Origin: Eledone cirrhosa
Taxonomy: Eukaryota
Assembly: GCA_964016885.1 (NCBI GenBank)
Contig: OZ024751.1
Location: forward strand, 35,836,001 to 35,900,000
DNA length: 64,000 nucleotides
Direction: 5' to 3'
In this document: piece after piece, positions 3,481 through 59,635 of the stretch
Layout of the letters: every line of letters begins with the position of its first letter
How positions within the stretch are numbered: position 1 is the first letter of the stretch
Program-made: the position numbers and the translations under genes
The notes under the pieces: generated by a model
What the model was told of the DNA's origin: nothing
Database searches by the model: none
The model's input: the letters and a program-made list of their open reading frames with translations, nothing else

Positions 3481-3548
<68 letters not shown>

Positions 3549-3554
<6 letters not shown>

Positions 3555-3605
3555 TTCCTGATGATTTCTAAAGAATGAAACAGTTCTAGTCCTGTAGAAT
3601 CTCAT
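3549..3605 (+). ncRNA. Type I hammerhead ribozyme (family B element)
   Basis: Stem I ATGAGATTC/GAATCTCAT; CTGATGA 3558-3564; stem II TTC/GAA; GAAA 3577-3580; stem III ACAG/CTGT; GTA cleavage triplet 3594-3596. Confidence 0.9.
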
Positions 3606-3684
3606 CTATATTAAAACTTTTATACTCTGCTATGTATTGAGTACCTTACTTACTGTGGTTACCTCCGATTCAACCCGGAATAAC

Positions 3685-3685
<1 letters not shown>
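3549..3685 (+). mobile_element. HHR-bearing non-coding element, family B, inserted in (TA)n
   Basis: HHR plus tail ...ACTCTGCTATGTATTGAGTACCTTACTTACTGTGGTTACC...CCCGGAATAACG, with (TA)n on both sides. Homologs at 22062, 24400 and 50437. Confidence 0.8.
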
Positions 3686-3733
<48 letters not shown>

Positions 3734-3737
<4 letters not shown>

Positions 3738-3813
3738 AACGAGTAGGACCCCGACGGCTGAGCTCAAGCCGTTTCGACGGCTAATTCTGGACTAAAATCA
3801 TTTTAGTCCAGAA
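3734..3813 (-). mobile_element. Family A fragment carrying the 3' half of an HHR
   Basis: Minus strand reads GAAACGGC-TTGAGCTCA-GCCGTC^GGGGTCC, preceded by the hairpin TTCTGGACTAAAAT/ATTTTAGTCCAGAA. Flanked by (TA)n. Confidence 0.75.
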
Positions 3814-8660: not shown

Positions 8661-8877
8661 AAACAAAGAAAGTGTGGCAAGATACCAGGTGGACCATAAG
8701 GCACCAGAGTACTCGATACTTTGGGTAGTAGAGTGGGTAATAGGAAAATAGTCAGGACCCCGACGGCTGAGCTCCAGCCGTTTAGGCAGCTAGATCCGAA
8801 CTAAACCAGATACTACCGCTTTAGTTCGGCTCTAGCTGTCGAAACGGCCGGAGCTCAGCCGTCGGGATCCTGACTCT

Positions 8878-8881
<4 letters not shown>
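8661..8881 (-). mobile_element. Family A element with fold-back palindrome (half HHR on both arms)
   Basis: Tail ACAAAGAAAGTGTGGCAAG...GTACTCGATAC...GTAGTAGAGTGGGTAATAGG, then inverted arms at ~8743-8805 and ~8820-8881. The right arm has GAAACGGC..GCCGTC^GGGATCC. Confidence 0.85.
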
Positions 8882-11097: not shown

Positions 11098-11376
11098 CAA
11101 CATAATACTGAGAGAAGTGATTAAGACTAAAAACAGACGTTTGTTTATAACACCTTTCCTATCAACAGGTGGTGGTGGTGGTGGTGTCCATTGCCAGACG
11201 ATTAATATTTCTTCTACTAATTTTTATCCAAACTCCATTACAGTCAGTCATTATATTTATGTGAAAGAAATGGAAGATTATAGAAGTAACTGTATCATTG
11301 TTAAACTCTTCTTATTTAACTGTCATTTTTGCACGGCCATCAAGAGTCTTTTGTTACAGTGTTACTGACTATGGCA

Positions 11377-11790
11377 CTGTCTGTGTTACAGCCTGTCACT
11401 CTCTGTGTTACAGTCTGTCACTCTGTGTGTTACAGTCTGTCACTCTCTGTGTTACAGCCTGTCACACTGTGTTACAGTCTGTTACTCTTTGTGTTACAGC
11501 CTGTCACTCTCTGTGTTACATCCTCTCACTCTCTGTGTGTTACAGCCTGTTACTCTCTGTGTTACAGCCTGTCACTCTCTGTGTTACAGCCTGTCACTCT
11601 CTGTGTTACAGTCTGTCACTCTGTGTGTTACAATCCGTCACTCTCTGTGTTACAGCCTGTCACACTCTGTGTTACAGTCTGTCACTCTTTGTGTTACAGT
11701 CTGCCACTCTCTGTGTTACATCCTGTCACTCTCTGTGTTACAGTCTGTTACTCTTTGTGTTACAGTCTGTCACTCTCTGTCACTCTGTGA
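11377..11790. repeat. ~22-bp minisatellite GTTACAG(C/T)CTGTCACTCTCTGT
   Basis: About 18 tandem units. Confidence 0.95.
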
Positions 11791-20076: not shown

Positions 20077-20105
<29 letters not shown>

Positions 20106-20107
<2 letters not shown>

Positions 20108-20176
20108 TCTACTATCCTAAGTATTGAGTACTATGGAGCGTTATGGTCGATCTGGTTCCTTACCACAATTCCTTTG

Positions 20177-20178
<2 letters not shown>
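20106..20178 (+). mobile_element. Family A 3' tail fragment ending in (TA)n
   Basis: ACTCTACTATCCTAAGTATTGAGTACT...GGTTCCTTACCACAATTCCTTTGT-TATATA. Confidence 0.85.
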
Positions 20179-22061: not shown

Positions 22062-22240
22062 GATCCCGTGCGAAATCGGGGGTAACCACAGTTAAAAAGG
22101 TACTCAATACATTAGTAGAGTGTAAATATCACTATTTAATACAGAAACGGCTTCTACAGGACTACTGCTTCTAGTCCTGTATTATCGAGGTCTTCCTGAT
22201 GATTTAATACGAACGAAACAGTTCTAGTTTTGTTGAAGCC
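22062..22240. mobile_element. Family B element: minus-strand tail plus an inverted plus-strand HHR
   Basis: 22062-22165 is the reverse complement of the family B tail. The plus strand has GGTCTTC-CTGATGA(22196)-...-GAAAC(22215)AGTTCTAGTTTT-GTT^GAAGCC. (TA)n on both sides. Confidence 0.8.
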
Positions 22241-23947: not shown

Positions 23948-24349
23948 ATAAAATATTAAACAAATAATGAATAAACAATTTCTTATATTAAACAAAAAAA
24001 GTTCATTATTTAACGATCGTTTCTAGGATATATATGTGTTAGAATTGGTATGCATATTTAACAGATCTATGTACAAAATTATACAAAATTATACAAATTA
24101 TCAAGATTAAATATACATACCAAACACATATATACACATATATATTATTTCTGAAGACGGCGTATATATGTGTTTGGTATGTATATTTAATCTTGATAAT
24201 TTGTATAATTTTGTATAATTTTGTACATAGATCTGTTAAATATGCATACCAATTCTAACACATATATATCCTAGAAACGATCGTTAAATAATGAACTTTT
24301 TTTGTTTAATATAAGAAATTGTTTATTCATTATTTGTTTAATATTTTAT
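23948..24349. repeat. 188-bp inverted repeat with 26-bp spacer
   Basis: 23948-24135 is the reverse complement of 24162-24349. No mismatch noticed by eye. Confidence 0.9.
24143..24293 (+). ncRNA. Type I hammerhead ribozyme with ~115-nt stem II
   Basis: TATTATTT-CTGAAGA(24151)-long hairpin (GTATATATGTGTT/AACACATATATAT; TGGTATGTATATTTAA/TTAAATATGCATACCA)-GAAAC(24274)-GATC-GTT^AAATAATG. Confidence 0.75.
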
Positions 24350-24350
24350 A

Positions 24351-24672
<322 letters not shown>

Positions 24673-26445: not shown

Positions 26446-26939
26446 CACACACACACACACATATATATACACACACACACACATACACTCACACACTCAC
26501 ACACATATATATGTATGTATATGTGCAACCACACACACATATATATATATGTACACACACATACACACACATATATATATATATTATATACACATACATA
26601 CATACGTATATATATATATATAGATACATACGTATATACATACATATATATGTATATATATATACATACATATATATATACATACATACATGCATACACA
26701 TGCACACACACAAACACACACATATATATATATACACACATACAGACACACATACACATATATTTAATATATATATACACACATACAGACGTGCACAAAT
26801 ACATGTACGCACTCAAACTTTCAAAGAGGCACATATTCGCACATACATACTCACATGCACGCATACACACTCACTAATAAACACACCAATATATATACAA
26901 ACACATACACGCGAGTGCACGCTAGGGTGCGCACTAGGG

Positions 26940-27250
26940 GAGAGCAAGGAGAAAAGAAAAGCAAGGAGAGCAAGGAGAACAGGAGAGCAAGGAGAGCAAT
27001 GAGAGAAAGGAGAGCAAGGAGAAAATGAGAGCATGGAGAAAAGGAGAGCAAGGAGAAAAGGAGAGCAAGGGAAGCAATGAGAAAAGGAGAGAAAGAAGAG
27101 CAATGAGAAAAGGAGAGCAAGAAGAGCAATGAGAAAAGGAGAGCTAGGAGAGCAAGGAGAGCAAGGAGAGAAAGGAGAGCAAGGAAAGCAATGAGAAAAG
27201 GAGAGCAAGGAGAGCAAGGAGAGCAAGGATAAAACGAGAGCAAGGAGAGT
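26940..27250. repeat. AGGAGAGCA(A)-based minisatellite
   Basis: Repeated 9-18-bp purine-rich units. Confidence 0.9.
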
Positions 27251-27705
27251 AAGGATAGATTAAGGAAAATATTGCTCAAGTTATGCTGGAAGCAGACAAA
27301 GGTGAAGAAGAGGAAGAAGAAGGGGTTGGCTGGATGTGTCCACATAAATTTCTGAAAAAAAGACAATGGTCGAGATAGGGAACAGTCCACCGCCTTTTAA
27401 CTGAATTAATCGTTGCGTATACTATGTTCCAACTTCAAGACGTTTGAAGGTCGCCTAACAGTTGTCCAATTGAGCTGAAATTTCTTCCGCACACCCCGCA
27501 TTTTTGTAAATTCGAACATTATTAGATGGTGGGCGATGAACTTTCGTAAAATTATCTATTGCTAAGGTCCGCCCTAGTGCACACACACGTACACACACAC
27601 AGTTGCATGTCCCTCCCCATGTAATACTCATTAATAGTGAAAGCACATGACATTTTGTAAACGACTAGGTTTCGTACGACCAACATGGTTGTAAAACGAA
27701 TTTGT

Positions 27706-31229: not shown

Positions 31230-31310
31230 AGTAAAAGGTTAGAGCCCGACGACTGAGCTCATGCCGTTGAAACAGCTTCAAGCTTAGCCGTCTAGTACTA
31301 ACTTTCTACT
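31230..31310. mobile_element. Degenerate family A fold-back
   Basis: CCCGACGACTGAGCTCATGCCGTT / GAAACAGCTTCAAGCTTAGCCGTC between TA runs. Confidence 0.7.
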
Positions 31311-31577: not shown

Positions 31578-31725
31578 GTGAAGGCGCATGGCTTAGTGGT
31601 TAGAGCATTGGACTTGCAATCGAAAGGTTGTGAGTTCAATTCTCGGACCGGGCGATGTGTTGTTTCCTTGAGCAAGACACTTTATTTCACTTTATTGCTC
31701 CAGTTTACTCAGCTGTAGAACTGAG
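31578..31725 (+). mobile_element. tRNA-derived CORE-SINE (octopus OR2-like)
   Basis: A box TGGCTTAGTGG, B box GAGTTCAATTC and CORE-like TCCTTGAGCAAGACACTTTATTTCAC...ACTCAGCTGTAGAA. Confidence 0.85.
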
Positions 31726-31984: not shown

Positions 31985-32024
31985 ACTCTTCTGACGAATG
32001 GCTAAACTCCGAAACGTCGATATA
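31985..32024 (+). ncRNA. Minimal Penelope-type hammerhead core with decayed stem I
   Basis: CTGACGA-ATGGCTAAACTCC-GAAACGTC. The flanking stem I pairs poorly. Confidence 0.55.
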
Positions 32025-32428
32025 CTTTTTTCTCTCTTTCATCCAACGCGTGAACCTAATAACACTAATTGTTTTAACATCCTAATGTTTGTCATGTTTT
32101 ATTATAAACGATGTCGTTCGTGGTTCTTAGTTGAGACGCTTATTGATAAACAATCAAGGGAGCTCACTCTAACTTTTATTTCTATAAAACAAACTAATAT
32201 TTAAAGAGACAAATGTATAGGCATTCATAGAATACAGAACTGAACAGGTAAAGAAATGTCTTCTCAAATGGGATTTTATATTTTCATCTGTTGGGATAGA
32301 GTTATGGTTACCATGGAGATGTTTATTAGTTTATTACAGTGATGACGTCACACTAACTCTATTGCTAATTAGATACAATATATTTTGGAATAGAATATGA
32401 ATATATATATATATATTCATATACACAT

Positions 32429-33608: not shown

Positions 33609-33734
33609 CATTTTATGTGATAAACTGGTGATATTCCAGTCACAAGACTCCCTATTTAGCCTTAATAAAATGGATATTAACATTCTACTACTGTATTGAG
33701 TACTATGTTCTCTCAGCCGTTAACCACATACGGT

Positions 33735-33737
<3 letters not shown>
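33609..33737 (+). mobile_element. Third GTATTGAGTAC-type element with a fossil HHR
   Basis: CATTTTAT-GTGATAA-ACTGG/CCAGT-...-TTA^ATAAAATG, then TTCTACTACTGTATTGAGTACT...CGGTTG-(TA)n. Confidence 0.6.
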
Positions 33738-33776
<39 letters not shown>

Positions 33777-33809
33777 TAATACTCCGGATAAATTCTGTTG
33801 AGTGTTTCT

Positions 33810-33859
33810 AAAATGTAAAATTAACTTTGTTGAATAATCGTTAAACCAAATAACTCAAT

Positions 33860-33909
<50 letters not shown>

Positions 33910-33959
33910 ATTGAGTTATTTGGTTTAACGATTATTCAACAAAGTTATTTTTACATTTA
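33810..33959. repeat. ~52-bp inverted repeat flanking a (TA)n tract
   Basis: AAATGTAAAATTAACTTTGTTGAATAATCGTTAAACCAAATAACTCAATGTT-(TA)n-its reverse complement. Confidence 0.9.
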
Positions 33960-34895
33960 ATATATATATATATATATATATATATGAATGTATATATACT
34001 AAGCGTGGCAGTCATGTTAAGACTAAGGTATGTAGAAGAGGTGCCGGATGTCACGAGTGTTACGTGGGAGCAGGCTGACGACAGGGGGCGCTACCGTGCT
34101 GGGTAGAGAGCTCTCGTTGTCGAATACGCCAGGGTAAACAGAAGGAATTATATAACTAATATATAAAAGTTGCCAGTTTTCTGTTCAAATTGACTTTTAC
34201 CGATTCGACAAATACAGATCGATAATAGAAATAGAAGACTTCAAAAATAAAGTACTGGGAGAAATATCTATCTATCTAGGGCGGGTAGAATTCCCGAGAT
34301 CCATGGACGAGTTCTCTCCAGCGGTCTCTGTCCCTCATTATCGCTGCCATGTCCTGCGTCTCCAAGAGACCAGTGTCTGTCCTTAGGGCATATGTTAACC
34401 CCGGTCATATGTTAACCTCTGTCTTCCTATTCCAGTGTGTCCATGCAGAAATATAATCGATTTAAATCCCCTAAAAGTTGGTGCCCCAGCGTGACCAAAG
34501 ACCAATGACTGAAACAAGTAAAAGAATAAAAGAATAAAAAACTAAAATGATACAAAAATATTACGAAACTGTCAAAGACCCTAATTTTTTTCAGTCTAAA
34601 ATTTGGTGATAATTTCTTTATTTTCTCCCCCTGAAGTGAAGCCAATTTCAGACTCGAGAGGTTCAATTCCATAACTTGGCACATCACTTAACGCCATATT
34701 AGAATAGACACCAACTAACTGAGAAATTGCCAGGGAGGAACTGGCTGAAAATTAGCAGAACACTGGCTATCTACTCCCTCCTTACCCTGCACACATTCAC
34801 TTACTAGATCCTACTCCTCCTCTACTTCCTCCTCCTCCTACTCCACCTCCTACTCCTCCTCCTCCGCCAATGTTTTCATGTCAAAATATGTAACA

Positions 34896-41486: not shown

Positions 41487-41729
41487 GAAAAAGTATGACC
41501 CCGACGGGGTCATCCTTTTTCCTATTACCCACTCTACTACCCTAAGTATTGAGTACTCTGGTGCGTTATGGTCCACTTGGTTCCTTACCACGTTTACTTC
41601 CTTATATATATATATATATGTATATATACATACATGTATATATACATAACGAAGGAATTGTGGCAAGGAACCAGATGGACCATAACGCACCAGAGTACTC
41701 AATACTTAGGGTAGTAGATAGGAAAAAGT
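41487..41729. mobile_element. Two family A elements tail-to-tail around a TA-rich tract
   Basis: Plus copy at 41506-41602 and minus copy at 41648-41729. A mini fold-back TGACCCC-GAC-GGGGTCA sits at 41496-41512. Confidence 0.9.
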
Positions 41730-42943: not shown

Positions 42944-42964
42944 TATGCTTATATATTAACCAAA

Positions 42965-43085
42965 GTGAAGGCGCGTGGCTGAGTGGTTAGAGAATTGGAT
43001 TCACAATCTTTATGTTGTGAGTTCGATTCCCGGACCGGGTGATGCGTTATGTCCTTAGGCAAGACACTTTATTTCACGCTGCTCC
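42965..43085 (+). mobile_element. tRNA-derived CORE-SINE (OR2-like)
   Basis: GTGAAGGCGCGTGGCTGAGTGGTTAGAG...GAGTTCGATTCCCGGACCGGG...GGCAAGACACTTTATTTCAC; same family as 31578. Confidence 0.85.
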
Positions 43086-45525: not shown

Positions 45526-45660
45526 AACGAAGGAAATGTGGTAAGGAACCAGGTGGACCATAACGCACCAAAGTACTCAATACTTGAGGTAGTAGAGTGG
45601 GTAATAGGAACCAGTAAGACCCCGACAGCTGAGCTCAGCTGTCGGGGTCTTACTGGTTCC

Positions 45661-48937: not shown

Positions 48938-48941
<4 letters not shown>

Positions 48942-49641
48942 ATTAGAACCCTGTAACCATTAAGCTCTAAGTATAAAGTACAAATAAATACTGAGCCGAT
49001 TGTCAATATATAGTAAGAAACACAGTAAACCGTGTGTCTAAAATTACAAGGGTTGAAAAACCACATATGCTTGAAATATTTAACCAAGAAACAGACAGAA
49101 TGACAAAATGAAAATAAAAATATATTATCATAATAATACAAACCGCCTCAATAACCATTATATCTCTCGGACAGATTATCCCTAATCTGTTTCGCCCTGA
49201 GTGTGTTTGTAACAGATAATCCTGGGCTTCATCAGCGAGAGATTGCGATTAAATGCCACAAACACTATTTGCCAACGTTCACACAGAAAGATGAATTCAT
49301 CACCTCGTGCTTCGCCAGTCAAACGTGGTAAGCGCGTATTGAACAGAAATAACAGTCCAACACGCACAACTTAATAGCTCAACTTGTAAGGGAGCAGAAA
49401 TATATATATGAGAATTAGAACCCTGTAACCATTAAGCTCTAAGTATAAAGTACAAATAAATACTGAGCCGATTAACAATAGAGAGATATAATGGTTATTG
49501 AGGCGGTTTGTATTATTATGATAATATATTTTTATTTTCATTTTGTCATTCTGTCTGTTTCTTGGTTAAATATTTCAAGCATATGTGGTTTTTCAACCCT
49601 TGTAATTTTAGACACACGGTTTACTGTGTTTCTTACTATAT

Positions 49642-50436: not shown

Positions 50437-50542
50437 GTTTATCCCGGGTCCAGCCGGGGGTAACCACAGTAAGTAAAGTACTCAATACAAAGCAGAGTAT
50501 AAATATTTAATATAGAAAGGCTTCTACAGAACTAGAACTGTT
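50437..50542 (-). mobile_element. Family B element truncated within HHR stem III
   Basis: Reverse complement AACAGTTCTAGTTCTGTA^GAAGCC...GTATTGAGTAC...CCCGGGATAAAC-TA. Confidence 0.85.
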
Positions 50543-50675
50543 ACATTACATTTGCTGAAAATTTAAAGTAAGTGAGACTGTCACTACTCTAAAACAATAG
50601 CGTAAGGTCTTCAAAATGCTTTTAATTAAGCATACAGTGTATTGCAAAATACACTGTATATACATTCATATATAT

Positions 50676-50873
50676 AACGAAGGAAGTGAGGTAAGGAACC
50701 AGATGGACAATAACGCACCAGAGTACTCAATACTTTGGGTAGTAGAGTGTGTAATAGGAAAAGAGTAAGAACCCCGACGGCAGAGCTTAAGCTATGTCGA
50801 CAGGTATTTCTGAGTCCAGAAATAGCTGTCGAAACAGCATGAGCTCTGCCGTCAGGGTTCTGACTCTTTTCCT
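50676..50873 (-). mobile_element. Family A element with fold-back
   Basis: AACGAAGGAAGTGAGGTAAGGAACC... followed by inverted arms at 50755-50873 with GAAACAGC..GCCGTC^AGGGTTC. Confidence 0.85.
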
Positions 50874-51725: not shown

Positions 51726-51811
51726 ACGAAGGAGGTGTGGTAAAGAACCAGATGGACCATAACGCACGAAAGTACGCAATACTTAGGGTAGTAGAGTGGG
51801 TCATACATTTT

Positions 51812-51813
<2 letters not shown>
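51725..51813 (-). mobile_element. Family A element with a collapsed fold-back
   Basis: The minus-strand tail is joined through GGG directly to the plus-arm remnant GGGTCATACATTTTCCTAT. Confidence 0.8.
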
Positions 51814-53990: not shown

Positions 53991-54592
53991 TGTGTCCACA
54001 AATGTCCACGTAATCTAACACTATATCTTTGTAAGGAAGATTACATATAGACACATCATGTTGAGTTGAATAAGTGAAATCCTCTCTTTATGAACGTATT
54101 AACAACAAAATTATGCTGAACAATCAACGAAGCGTGAACTTATAATTTTAAAAGCCTTCTGTAGAAACTTAAGATTGTGTCATTGCTTTTCAAGTTGATT
54201 CAGTAAATATGAGAAGGTTTCAACATCTAATGTGTTGGCAATAATTAGTAGCTGGATAGAGAGTGTCATATCATCATTTTACAGACAAAATACTTGTTCT
54301 TAGAAGATAAAACAACAACGAAACAAAGACTGGCAGCAAGTACACAATAAATTGGCCTATCTATAAAGTATATAATAACTACTAAATATAACAATGTGAA
54401 GGTTATGTAAAGGAAAACAGCTTGAAGGGGGAAAAATAATGTTTAGATAAGCTGAAGAGGAAAACTAGTGATCTGAGAATATAAAAAATGTTAGATGAAA
54501 CAAAAACATTCGCCAAACAAGCAAATAAAATGGCGAACTAAATCGATAGAGAGATAGGATGTTTAGGCGGCAGGATGAAGAAAAAACAGCAT

Positions 54593-54753
54593 GTGAGAGA
54601 ATGAGATAATGTAGGATAAGAGAGAGAGGGAGGGAGAGGGAGAGAGTGTGAGTGAGAGTGAATGAGAGAATGAGATAATGTAGGATAAGAGAGAGAGAGA
54701 GAGGGAGAGAGAGAGTGTGAGTGAGAGTGAATGAGAGAATGAGATAATGTAGG

Positions 54754-54802
<49 letters not shown>

Positions 54803-54983
54803 TGTGAGTGAGAGTGAATAAGAGAATGAGATAATGTAGGATAAGAGAGAGAGGGAGGGAGAGGGAGAGAGTGTGAGTGAGAGTGAATGAGAGAATGAGA
54901 TAATGTAGGATAAGAGAGAGAGAGAGAGAGGGAGAGAGAGAGAAAGTGTGAGTGAGAGTGAATGAGAGAATGAGATAATGTAG

Positions 54984-55043
<60 letters not shown>

Positions 55044-55385
55044 TGTGAGTGAGAGTGAATGAGAGAATGAGATAATGGAGGATAAGAGAGAGAGAGAGGG
55101 AGAGAGAGAGAACGTGTGAGTGAGAGTGAATGAGAGAATGAGATAATGTAGGATAAGAGAGAGAGAGAGAGGGGTAGAGAGTGAGAGAGAGTGAGAGTGA
55201 ATGAGAGAATGAGATAATGTAGGATAAGAGAGAGAGAGAGGGAGAGAGGGAGAGTGAGTGAGAGTGAATGAGAGAATGAGATAATGGAGGATAAGAGAGA
55301 GAGAGGGAGAGAGAGAGAACGTGTGAGTGAGAGTGAATGAGAGAATGAGATAATGTAGGATAAGAGAGAGAGAGAGAGAGGGAGA
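54593..55385. repeat. Minisatellite with constant ~40-bp core and variable (GA)n spacer
   Basis: About 13 copies of GAGTGAGAGTGAATGAGAGAATGAGATAATGTAGGATAAG. Confidence 0.95.
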
Positions 55386-57181
55386 AAGAGACTACTTGTG
55401 ATGAAGACATAGAAAGAGAATCCGAGAGAGGGAGAGAGAAAGAGAAAGGGTAGAGAAAGAGAGTTGGAAAAGAGAGAGAGATGAGAAGGTGGGGAGGTGA
55501 AAGAGAAAGAGAGAAGTAGAATGAAGAAGAAGGAGGAGGAGAGAGATCAGGTTAAATGTGTGTCCATGTGTGTTTTTTTTATTACTGTTATCAATTGCTC
55601 TTTGCTAGTGTGTGTCTGTATGTTTGTGTGTCTGTATGTATGTGTTGGAATGTGGATGTCTGTATGGATGTGTGAGTGAGTGTGTGTGTGTGTGTGTGTA
55701 AATGTGTGTATGTATATGCGTGTAAATGTGTGTGCGTGCGTGTGGTGTGTGTGTGCTGTGTGTATGAGTGCATGTATAGGTAAGTGTAAATGTATGTGTG
55801 TGTGTGTATGTGTGTGTATGTGTGTGTGTGTGTGTCTATGTGTGTGTATGTGTGTGTGTTTGTGTGTGTTTGTATGTGTGTGTGTATGTGCGTGTGTGTG
55901 TATGTGTGTGTGTATGTGCGTGTGTGTGTATGTGTGTGTGTGTATGTGTGTGTATGTGTGTGTGTTTGTGTGTGTGTGAAATTAAGTGATGTTCAAAGAG
56001 ATAAGACAATAGAAAAACAACAGATGGAAAAAAAAACCAAGATGGAACTGAAAAAACAAACTAAACAACAACAACAAAACAACAACAACAACAATGACAA
56101 GAAAGAAAAGAAGAAAAGAAGAGAAGCCATTGATAGAAACTATTACTGCCGGTGATACTAATCGATGTGGACCGATATTTATAGTTTAGATATCGATGTT
56201 AATAAAGATAGAGAAGGATTTCATGAAGGAATCCATCACTGCAAGGTATTAACTCGTTAATCTAGGAATACTTTCACTTTTATCCGATTAGTTCTAACTC
56301 ATCATAACTTTCATTCTCTCTGTCACTCTTTCTTTCTTTCCCTCCTTCCTTCTGTCTGTCCATCTTTCTTTCTTTCGTACTTTCTTTCCCTCTCTCTTGC
56401 TCCCTCTCTCCCTTCCTTTCTGTTTCTCATTCTTTCTTTCTTTATTTCTTTCTTTCATTCTGTCTTTCTTTCTTTCCTTCTTTCCTCCCCCCTTCCTTTC
56501 TTTCATTCTTTCTTTCTCTCTCTATTTCGTTCTCTTTCTTTTGCTCTTTATATTTTTTCTGATTGTTTCTTTCGTTTTTTTCGTTCTTTCGTACTTTCTT
56601 TCGCCCCCCTCCCTCTCCCCCTCTTTCCATATCTCTCCCTCTCCCGCCCTCTCCCTCCCTCTCCCTCCCTCTCATTACATATGTATTTAGTATACCTCTG
56701 CCACTCTAACGTCATCTATGTCGAGGTTCTTGTCAACCGAGAAACATCTATCAAATTATCTTGAAGACACGATGGTGACAAATATATTTAGGACAAATCT
56801 GTAAAGAAACCAGCAATATATGTGATTAGACATTTCTAGGTAGGTTCTTGTATTATTTCTCATCGATACTGACAAATATATTTAGGAGAGTTCCATAAAA
56901 ATGAGGCAAAGATAGCTCCGCATATTTGGTGATTGTGTGTGAGACACCCTCACCTGGGAACATCCAACTTAGTCCTTTGGAACCCAATTCATGGAGTTGG
57001 AATGTGAGAAAAACCTCAATTTACCTACATGGACAACCTGACCATAGATACTGTCCTGGACTGAGTCCAGCACCTGAAGACGATGATGTTGGACTTTGTC
57101 CCTGCGGCCCGGGTTGAAACCGGCTAAGAAGAAAAAGAAGTTCAGTAAGAAACCATCATTATATGTGAGTATATATATAAG

Positions 57182-58971: not shown

Positions 58972-59230
58972 ACACATACACACAAATATATACATATATA
59001 TGTATATACATGCACACAGGTACGCACTTATGCAGACACAAACACATACACACACAAACACACCTATATAGGTGTGTTTGCGTTTGCTAACGTTGATATC
59101 CCTAAAACACACACACAGATACAAAACCTGGTACCTCTTTGTCAAATAGAAACCCCTACGAGCAGTGTGGGCAATTTGATCGACTAAACCCTAGAGCAGC
59201 AGTAATGCCCAGCTCTTTCATCAGATGAAA

Positions 59231-59314
59231 ATAACTATTTCATCTGATGAACGAGGTGGGCGTTTCTGTAAGGATCGTCTAGTCTCCTGAAACCTTTGGT
59301 AATGGAATAATTAT
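59231..59314 (+). ncRNA. Type I hammerhead ribozyme
   Basis: ATAACTATTTCAT-CTGATGA(59244)-stem II (TGGGCG/CGTCTA)-GAAACC-TTT-GGTA^ATGGAATAATTAT. Confidence 0.8.
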
Positions 59315-59521: not shown

Positions 59522-59528
59522 TAGTAAC

Positions 59529-59635
59529 ACAATTGTTTCACCTTAGCAGATCTTCAGCTCGCACTGGTCATGGTTAAACGTATAACCATGTCCAGTACGC
59601 GCTGAAGATCCACTAAGGTGAAACAATTGTTCTCG
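59529..59635. ncRNA. Palindromic pair of minimal hammerheads
   Basis: Plus: CGCG-CTGAAGA-TCCACTAAGGT-GAAAC-AATT-GTT^CTCG. Minus: CGAG-CTGAAGA-TCTGCTAAGGT-GAAAC-AATT-GTG. Both lie in a ~100-bp imperfect palindrome. Confidence 0.7.

Follow-up and report, generated by a model that had tools for sequence, protein, structure and literature searches.

Hammerhead motif between two TA runs

Between two TA runs of a 64-kb window (the whole stretch of DNA analyzed here) lies a short segment with a hammerhead ribozyme motif and a tail, and it raises the question of whether such a segment is a complete mobile unit or a piece of something larger. As delimited by the tandem-repeat listing of the window, the unique part of this copy covers 3551-3685 (135 bp), with 80 nt between the end of stem I and the right TA run (Table 1). 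The setting is AT-rich and dense in microsatellites (265 tandem-repeat rows), and the long open reading frames (ORFs) of the window are translations of simple repeats. Minisatellite arrays occupy 11375-11780 (22-bp units), 26939-27255 (26-bp units), and 54500-55380 (units of about 56 bp), while long, near-perfect inverted noncoding duplications are found at 23984-24313 and 33788-33981, with arms of at least 150 bp and of ~97 bp, respectively.

We find the features of a type I hammerhead at 3551-3685, namely, CUGANGA, GAAA, A15.1-U16.1 followed by an NUH triplet, and three helices of which stem I is open, the stems measuring 9 bp (I), 3 bp (II), and 3 bp (III). A generic type I descriptor recovers three loci in the window (3558 and 22196 on the plus strand and 49235 on the minus strand) compared to a mean of 0.04 and a maximum of 1 in 100 shuffles. 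Given this excess and the core, triplet, and stems, the hammerhead that an earlier note had recognized, with a predicted cut after 3596, is borne out, and the motif is real. Among Rfam hammerhead models the best match is Hammerhead_HH9 (RF02275, clan CL00010), which aligns over its full length to 3546-3614 with 14.4 bits (E 0.71), below the gathering score of 52 bits, so the segment falls outside this Rfam family. A scan of the whole window gave 293 Rfam matches; the 150 listed contain no hammerhead and are nearly all sub-cutoff, microsatellite-driven microRNA matches, plus one tRNA. tRNA-derived SINE heads are present at 31589-31646 on the plus strand (Rfam tRNA, 32.2 bits at 31589) and at 42950-43010, with many further SINE fragments throughout the window; the dispersed SINE-like repeats resemble octopus ones.

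The window has other hammerhead-like sequences. The minus-strand motif at 49175-49243 is a well-formed type I hammerhead with an 8-bp stem I, an extra A before stem II, a long stem III, and GUC, and it lies in a region (48939-49640) that is present as an inverted duplication. Head-to-head inverted pairs with CUGAUGA/CUGAAGA cores, the second with GAAA, lie at 59200-59268 and 59526-59633 and are possible Penelope-like element (PLE)-type ends. Plus-strand CUGANGA...GAAAC cores at 31991-32060 and 57074-57150 fail the stem I test; the latter follows a decayed coding stretch at 56702-57061.

Table 1. Positions of the features of the 3551-3685 copy and of related repeats in the 64-kb window
Feature	Position	Strand	Remark
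Left (AT)34 run	3483-3550	.	Target microsatellite; target-site duplication unreadable there
5' boundary of the copy and stem I 5' arm	3551-3557	+	9-bp pairing reaches back to 3549 using the AT run
Hammerhead core C3-A9, CUGAUGA	3558-3564	+	
Stem II, U.U at 10.1-11.1, then 3 bp	3565-3576	+	Variable tetraloop, 3569-3572
Core GAAA (G12-A15.1)	3577-3580	+	
Stem III, 3581-3583/3592-3594 (3 bp) plus A15.1-U16.1, 8-nt loop	3580-3595	+	Imperfect palindrome centered on CUAG
GUA triplet	3594-3596	+	Predicted cleavage after 3596
Stem I 3' arm	3597-3605	+	GAAUCU here, GAAGCC in the other subfamily
AT-rich spacer	3606-3621	+	Includes the 78-nt tandem joint (3621 to 3552) and, at about 3611-3621, the alternative short 3' end
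Motif common to families A, B, and C; 7-bp hairpin possible, UU bulge	3624-3644	+	Candidate reverse transcriptase (RT)-binding signal
Remainder of optional tail, to long 3' end	3645-3685	+	End lies 89 nt past predicted cut site
Right (TA)25 run	3686-3735	.	
Family B copy with tail, 5' end within stem III	22062-22164	-	
Head-to-head arm of insertion 22062-22164, without tail, ending right after stem I	22169-22240	+	
Inverted 5' arm ending at short 3' end, about 15 nt past cut site	24401-24440	-	
Family B copy with tail, starting at GAAA, without CUGAUGA	24441-24550	+	
Family B copy with tail, without CUGAUGA, GAAA mutated, 5' end without TA run	50437-50547	-	
Family A tailed copies (7)	8661-8881, 20099-20178, 41487-41720, 45527-45660, 50650-50872, 51726-51813 among coordinates given		
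Family A short pieces	3736-3813, 31242-31277	-	3736-3813 directly adjoins right TA run of the 3551-3685 copy
Third repeat end with shared motif, 44 nt from TA run	33671-33735	+	No hammerhead upstream

Predicted activity of the hammerhead

The usual, although not universal, G10.1-C11.1 pair is absent, being replaced by U.U at 3565/3576 and by U.C in the 22196 locus. As the read pile-up rows listed include no variants at 3565 or 3576, U.U is taken to be the family norm. In the folding model, the hammerhead lies 5 kcal/mol above the minimum and has a probability of 7e-5 as a monomer; it is disfavored, since GAAA is taken up by pairing with the 5' strand of stem II. Such folding models often under-call three-way junctions. 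Folding of the whole element is no better than that of shuffles (z of -1.12), the hammerhead alone reaches a z of -1.89, and the minimum-energy structure of the hammerhead region is other than the hammerhead. Segment 3580-3595 is predicted to pair with itself as a dimer at -12.8 kcal/mol, with 74 of 2,000 shuffles equally good, and no variants are listed for the stem III loop in DNA reads. Loop 1 is missing from the 3551-3685 copy, which is cut at stem I, and loop II is highly variable, both of which bear on a loop 1/loop 2 contact. The U.U at the base of stem II, the palindromic stem III, and the disfavored monomer fold together suggest that this is likely a weak ribozyme assisted by dimerization or by protein.

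Variable 5' ends and two 3' ends in the repeat family

Further copies of this repeat, designated family B, had been placed at 22062, 24400, and 50437, and BLAST confirms all three, at 78 to 90% identity. None of these three loci repeats the layout of the 3551-3685 copy. The distance from the cut site to the long 3' end is nearly constant, at 88 to 93 nt in all four window copies, and all ends abut TA or CA runs. Two of the four loci (24401-24550 and 22062-22240) consist of head-to-head inverted, 5'-truncated arms, with a tail on one arm only in each case; the plus-strand segment 22189-22240 has a full hammerhead core, a GUU triplet, and a stem I of GG(U)CUUC/GAAGCC. Tandem units are found at none of the four loci. 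A coding reading of the tail was rejected, as no ATG-led frame runs through it in any of the four window copies and frame-shifting indels are common in reads.

To view the family beyond the window, 3549-3686 was compared at 80% likeness with four of 23 listed sequencing runs, X1 and X4 (contig records), X21 (restriction site-associated DNA [RAD] reads), and X5. There are 9,997 matches among 16,285,364 contig records in X1, 363 among 762,587 in X4, and 6,876 among 12,467,656 RAD reads in X21, which bears the same species label; X5, from another organism, has 35 among 8,254,286, one of them a 65-nt contig that matches 3554-3618 exactly. These match counts are not copy numbers, and those of X21 may stem from few loci because it is a RAD library.

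At the 5' side, loose ends before 3552 are seen in 762 X21 reads, with a shared non-TA sequence (median, 99 nt; agreement, 0.69) that ends in TGATACCC. Another 532 reads have non-TA loose ends before 3555, ending in GGC, and in 419 the sequence before 3554 has an ending that resembles an inverted arm. The 6-bp AGATTC at 3552-3557 is also present in the upstream-extended DNA reads, from which the parent sequence upstream can be read as a 30-nt consensus only. In X21, the consensus before 3552 runs from a T-rich tract through CCC into the AG of stem I, which speculatively resembles a 3' splice site; in Drosophila virilis Penelope, an intron is reported to end at the 5' side of helix I (PMC4209133).

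There are two 3' ends in X21, with 418 reads entering TA behind 3618 and 489 behind 3683, and many copies in DNA reads end near 3618 without a tail. Among the joints listed, 12 of 15 change strand, e.g., 3555/3573 (12 contigs) and 3573/3574 (97 reads). A back joint from 3621 to 3552, with ~8 letters between, is present in 79 X21 reads from 17 starts and in three X1 contigs and corresponds to 78-nt DNA tandems.

The varied 5' ends and upstream extensions indicate that family B does not start at stem I as a rule and that the 3551-3685 copy is a truncation. Hence, the proposal of a complete ~135-bp unit is not supported, with none of the three other window loci alike, 762 reads continuing upstream, and inverted arms and 78-nt tandems elsewhere. 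The accompanying description, an element that begins exactly at stem I and ends 80 nt later with TA on both sides, is accurate for this copy but not as a family rule, as 5' ends vary.

Stem I covariation and selection on the fold

The case for selection on the RNA fold had been built on compensatory changes in stem I. Only two of the four window loci keep both stem I arms, and these differ by two compensatory pairs and one mismatch, which 122 of 500 shuffles do as well. Reads suggest two stem I subfamilies, AGAUUC/GAAUCU and GGCUUC/GAAGCC, each arm being read separately and not as a pair from one molecule; 1,195 X21 reads continue with GCC behind 3599. Thus, the two pairs exist, but they are a single, nonsignificant contrast between two subfamilies. 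Strand-switch joints in DNA reads (3551/3556 to 3604 and 3560 to 3597) have inverted arms joined at stem I, and in the 3551-3685 copy, 14 of the 15 bases up to and including 3557 agree with 3597-3611 read as its reverse complement, partly via the AT run. Because an inverted arm that joins at stem I templates complementarity, the covariation is confounded and could arise without selection.

A different pattern is seen in the variation among reads. In X21, four positions of loop II vary at 18, 48, 20, and 48%, while the rows listed for eight stem II positions and for 3578-3599 include no variant of 5% or more. In the core, variation at 3560, 3561, and 3577 is 6 to 8% in X21 and under 1% in X1. 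Selection on the fold is therefore supported at the family level by the loop-versus-stem pattern in thousands of reads, and less so by stem I covariation. As the reads were picked by likeness, this pattern reflects selection on the source elements and not on each copy.

A 3' motif shared among repeat families

Downstream of the hammerhead lies a motif, GTATTGAGTAC, with 10 exact and 2 one-mismatch occurrences in the window, distributed as 4 in family B, 7 in a second, commoner family (family A), and 1 in another repeat. It sits 33 to 50 nt before a TA or CA run in 11 of the 12, the twelfth having a shorter run, and a wider pattern of the motif has eight matches compared to none in 100 shuffles. 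The putative hairpin has 7 bp, a UU bulge, and a loop of 3 to 8 nt. Across the 12 copies, 96.4% of cells are paired, with no double-sided changes, and thus the hairpin is compatible with the data but not proven.

Family A has the same order of parts as family B: GAAA comes first, followed by a palindromic stem III of 16 nt, the cut site (GUC), the motif, and a tail. Several of its copies also have inverted arms. Its predicted cut-to-end distance is 97 to 101 nt in the four copies that reach the cut site, and CUGANGA is kept in none of its window copies. BLAST detects no similarity between families A and B outside the shared motif, although shared descent is still possible. We tentatively raise the possibility that hairpin 3624-3644, whose spacing from the 3' end is fixed in families A, B, and C, is a signal for binding of a PLE RT and for its internal start.

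Probable relationship to Penelope-like elements

PLEs are described as having hammerheads near their 3' ends, inverted 5'-truncated copies, and an optional tail of 30 to 40 bp at one end, with some preferring (TA)n (Craig 2021, PMC8557442; PMC3846280). The corresponding terminal-repeat traits all recur in family B, whose hammerhead lies close to the 3' end, whose copies include inverted ones truncated at the 5' side, whose tail is optional and confined to one end, and whose target is (TA)n. The 3551-3685 segment is thus one 5'-truncated copy among many of a hammerhead repeat, and we consider it probable that this repeat represents the terminal repeat, pLTR and tail together, of a PLE that targets TA or of a noncoding derivative that borrows its enzyme.

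Under the proposed mechanism, the PLE RT-endonuclease would nick a (TA)n target, and reverse transcription would start inside the RNA, ~89 nt (long end) or 10 to 25 nt (short end) downstream of where the ribozyme cuts; binding of the conserved 3624-3644 hairpin might come first. As copies span the cut site, uncut RNA would serve as the template. The RT would stop early, at stem I in the case of the 3551-3685 copy, and the ribozyme, predicted to be weak alone, would need a second copy (through the palindromic stem III) or a protein.

A close parallel is the anole PLE PAc (Poseidon, Anolis), which is reported to nick AT-rich DNA and to use uncut RNA as the template, its ribozyme being protein assisted (Frangieh 2024, PMC11167929). 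RT start at +111 to +118 and the cut at +26 place the two 85 to 92 nt apart, compared to 88 to 93 nt in family B, and AT-rich targets, two 3' ends, and a spanned cut site are likewise common to both. However, the PAc ORF starts at stem II (PMC11167929), whereas no ORF runs through the family B tail, which is ~65 to 75 nt rather than 30 to 40 nt.

In PLEs generally, thousands of hammerheads per animal genome are described, mostly single, dispersed, variable, with a palindromic helix III, and weak in vitro (Cervera and De la Pena 2014, PMC4209133). Those in pLTRs of Drosophila, rotifer, shrimp, and mosquito resemble family B in having a type I topology, a palindrome in the region of helix III, a majority of single, dispersed copies, opposite-strand pairs, and a predicted need for dimers (PMC4209133). 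They differ in helix II, which is long with G10.1-C11.1 and a bulged base, whereas that of family B is short (3 bp) with U.U; family B also differs by its 8-nt helix III loop.

Several observations count against a PLE origin or leave it without a protein partner. The tail is ~65 to 75 nt compared to 30 to 40 nt in the papers, and the 78-nt tandems fit a retrozyme equally well. Some pLTRs are reported to contain an ORF start (PMC3846280), and a pLTR plus tail with such a start, as in some PLE clades, is absent from the four window copies. Regarding a link to RT or GIY-YIG domains, 21 reading frames near candidate motifs gave no Pfam match above the cutoff and two weak sub-cutoff matches, neither of them to RT or GIY-YIG. 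Pattern scans for the family B parent returned no matches in metagenome, viral, or prokaryote contigs. The decayed stretch at 56702-57061 was considered as a PLE C terminus and rejected; its five weak matches (E of 1e-4 to 6e-4) are to proteins that have neither a Pfam family nor an informative name. Since these matches look like what we take to be a LINE C terminus, the stretch lends no support to the PLE link.

In Octopus vulgaris, recently active Penelope-like families are described, with ribozymes unmentioned in the portion of the report consulted (PMC13282606). The literature matched for octopus or cephalopod hammerheads comprised PMC8557442 and a twister paper. Among titles and abstract beginnings, we found no account of such families for cephalopod-like genomes; they may be in Repbase or Dfam, in preprint supplements, or in the consensus files of PMC8557442.

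Alternative origins of the repeat

The best-surviving alternative, which we regard as unlikely, is that family B is mainly a non-LTR retrozyme, whose 78-nt tandem units are transcribed, cut as dimers, circularized, and reinserted, with the dispersed copies as by-products. The back joint from 3621 to 3552 (79 reads from 17 starts; 3 contigs), together with further joint variants, fits this scheme, as do the palindromic stem III and the U.U at the base of stem II. The latter is reported in the axolotl HHR_Amex2, in which 22% is cut in an hour as a monomer, with better cleavage as a dimer (PMC7229834). HHR_Amex2 and the non-LTR retrozymes are further like family B in being type I, with a 6-bp stem I, noncoding, and in part arranged in head-to-tail tandems (PMC7229834). 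The 78-nt unit falls within the retrozyme range of 51 to 972 bp given by Li 2026 (bioRxiv 10.64898/2026.07.22.740005). However, none of the four window loci is a tandem, joint reads amount to ~1% of matched reads, and the tandem unit omits the tail present in most copies. Family B is mostly dispersed, truncated, and inverted in (TA)n, with a 78-nt tandem unit, whereas units of 330 to 350 nt are described for non-LTR retrozymes (PMC7229834; Li 2026). The joints are seen in DNA and hence do not demonstrate a circle, and the combination of inverted arms and an optional tail has been described for PLEs. As Li 2026 proposes that retrozymes derive from PLE pLTRs, this alternative overlaps the PLE reading.

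Less probable still is a self-contained, SINE-like mini-element that begins at stem I and has the hammerhead and the tail as its complete unit. The start of the 3551-3685 copy at stem I with TA on both sides, the X5 contig, and the constant 3' end would all agree with this. Against it stand the differing layouts of the other three loci and the non-TA extensions upstream of 3552 and 3555, and no promoter-like head is seen. Moreover, a transcript starting at stem I would lose its own ribozyme if cut.

The least probable origin is a LINE of another class that targets microsatellites, with family B as its 3' end or as a sequence it mobilizes and the hammerhead as a passenger. LINEs are reported active in octopus (PMC13282606), and the decayed stretch 56702-57061, which precedes another core-like motif, has matches to unnamed proteins resembling a putative LINE C terminus. 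Against this, family B lacks its own poly(A) or short-repeat tail, PLEs are reported to have both head-to-head arms and an optional tail (PMC8557442, PMC11167929, PMC3846280), and type I hammerheads with a palindromic helix III are tied to PLEs (PMC4209133).

Significance

Many animal genomes contain thousands of PLE ends with hammerheads, and family B is itself ordinary. It is of some use in that the literature searched gave no account of such families for cephalopod-like genomes and in that the comparison of three short families points to a common motif and a fixed cut-to-end distance. The latter touches on the open question of which RNA signal PLE enzymes recognize and what role the hammerhead has when uncut RNA is copied. 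If the tentative reading of the hairpin were true, then ~135 nt, comprising a dimer-dependent U.U hammerhead, the hairpin, and the tail, would be a minimal cis cassette for (TA)n insertion, and the genome would show pLTRs turning into 78-nt mini-retrozymes.
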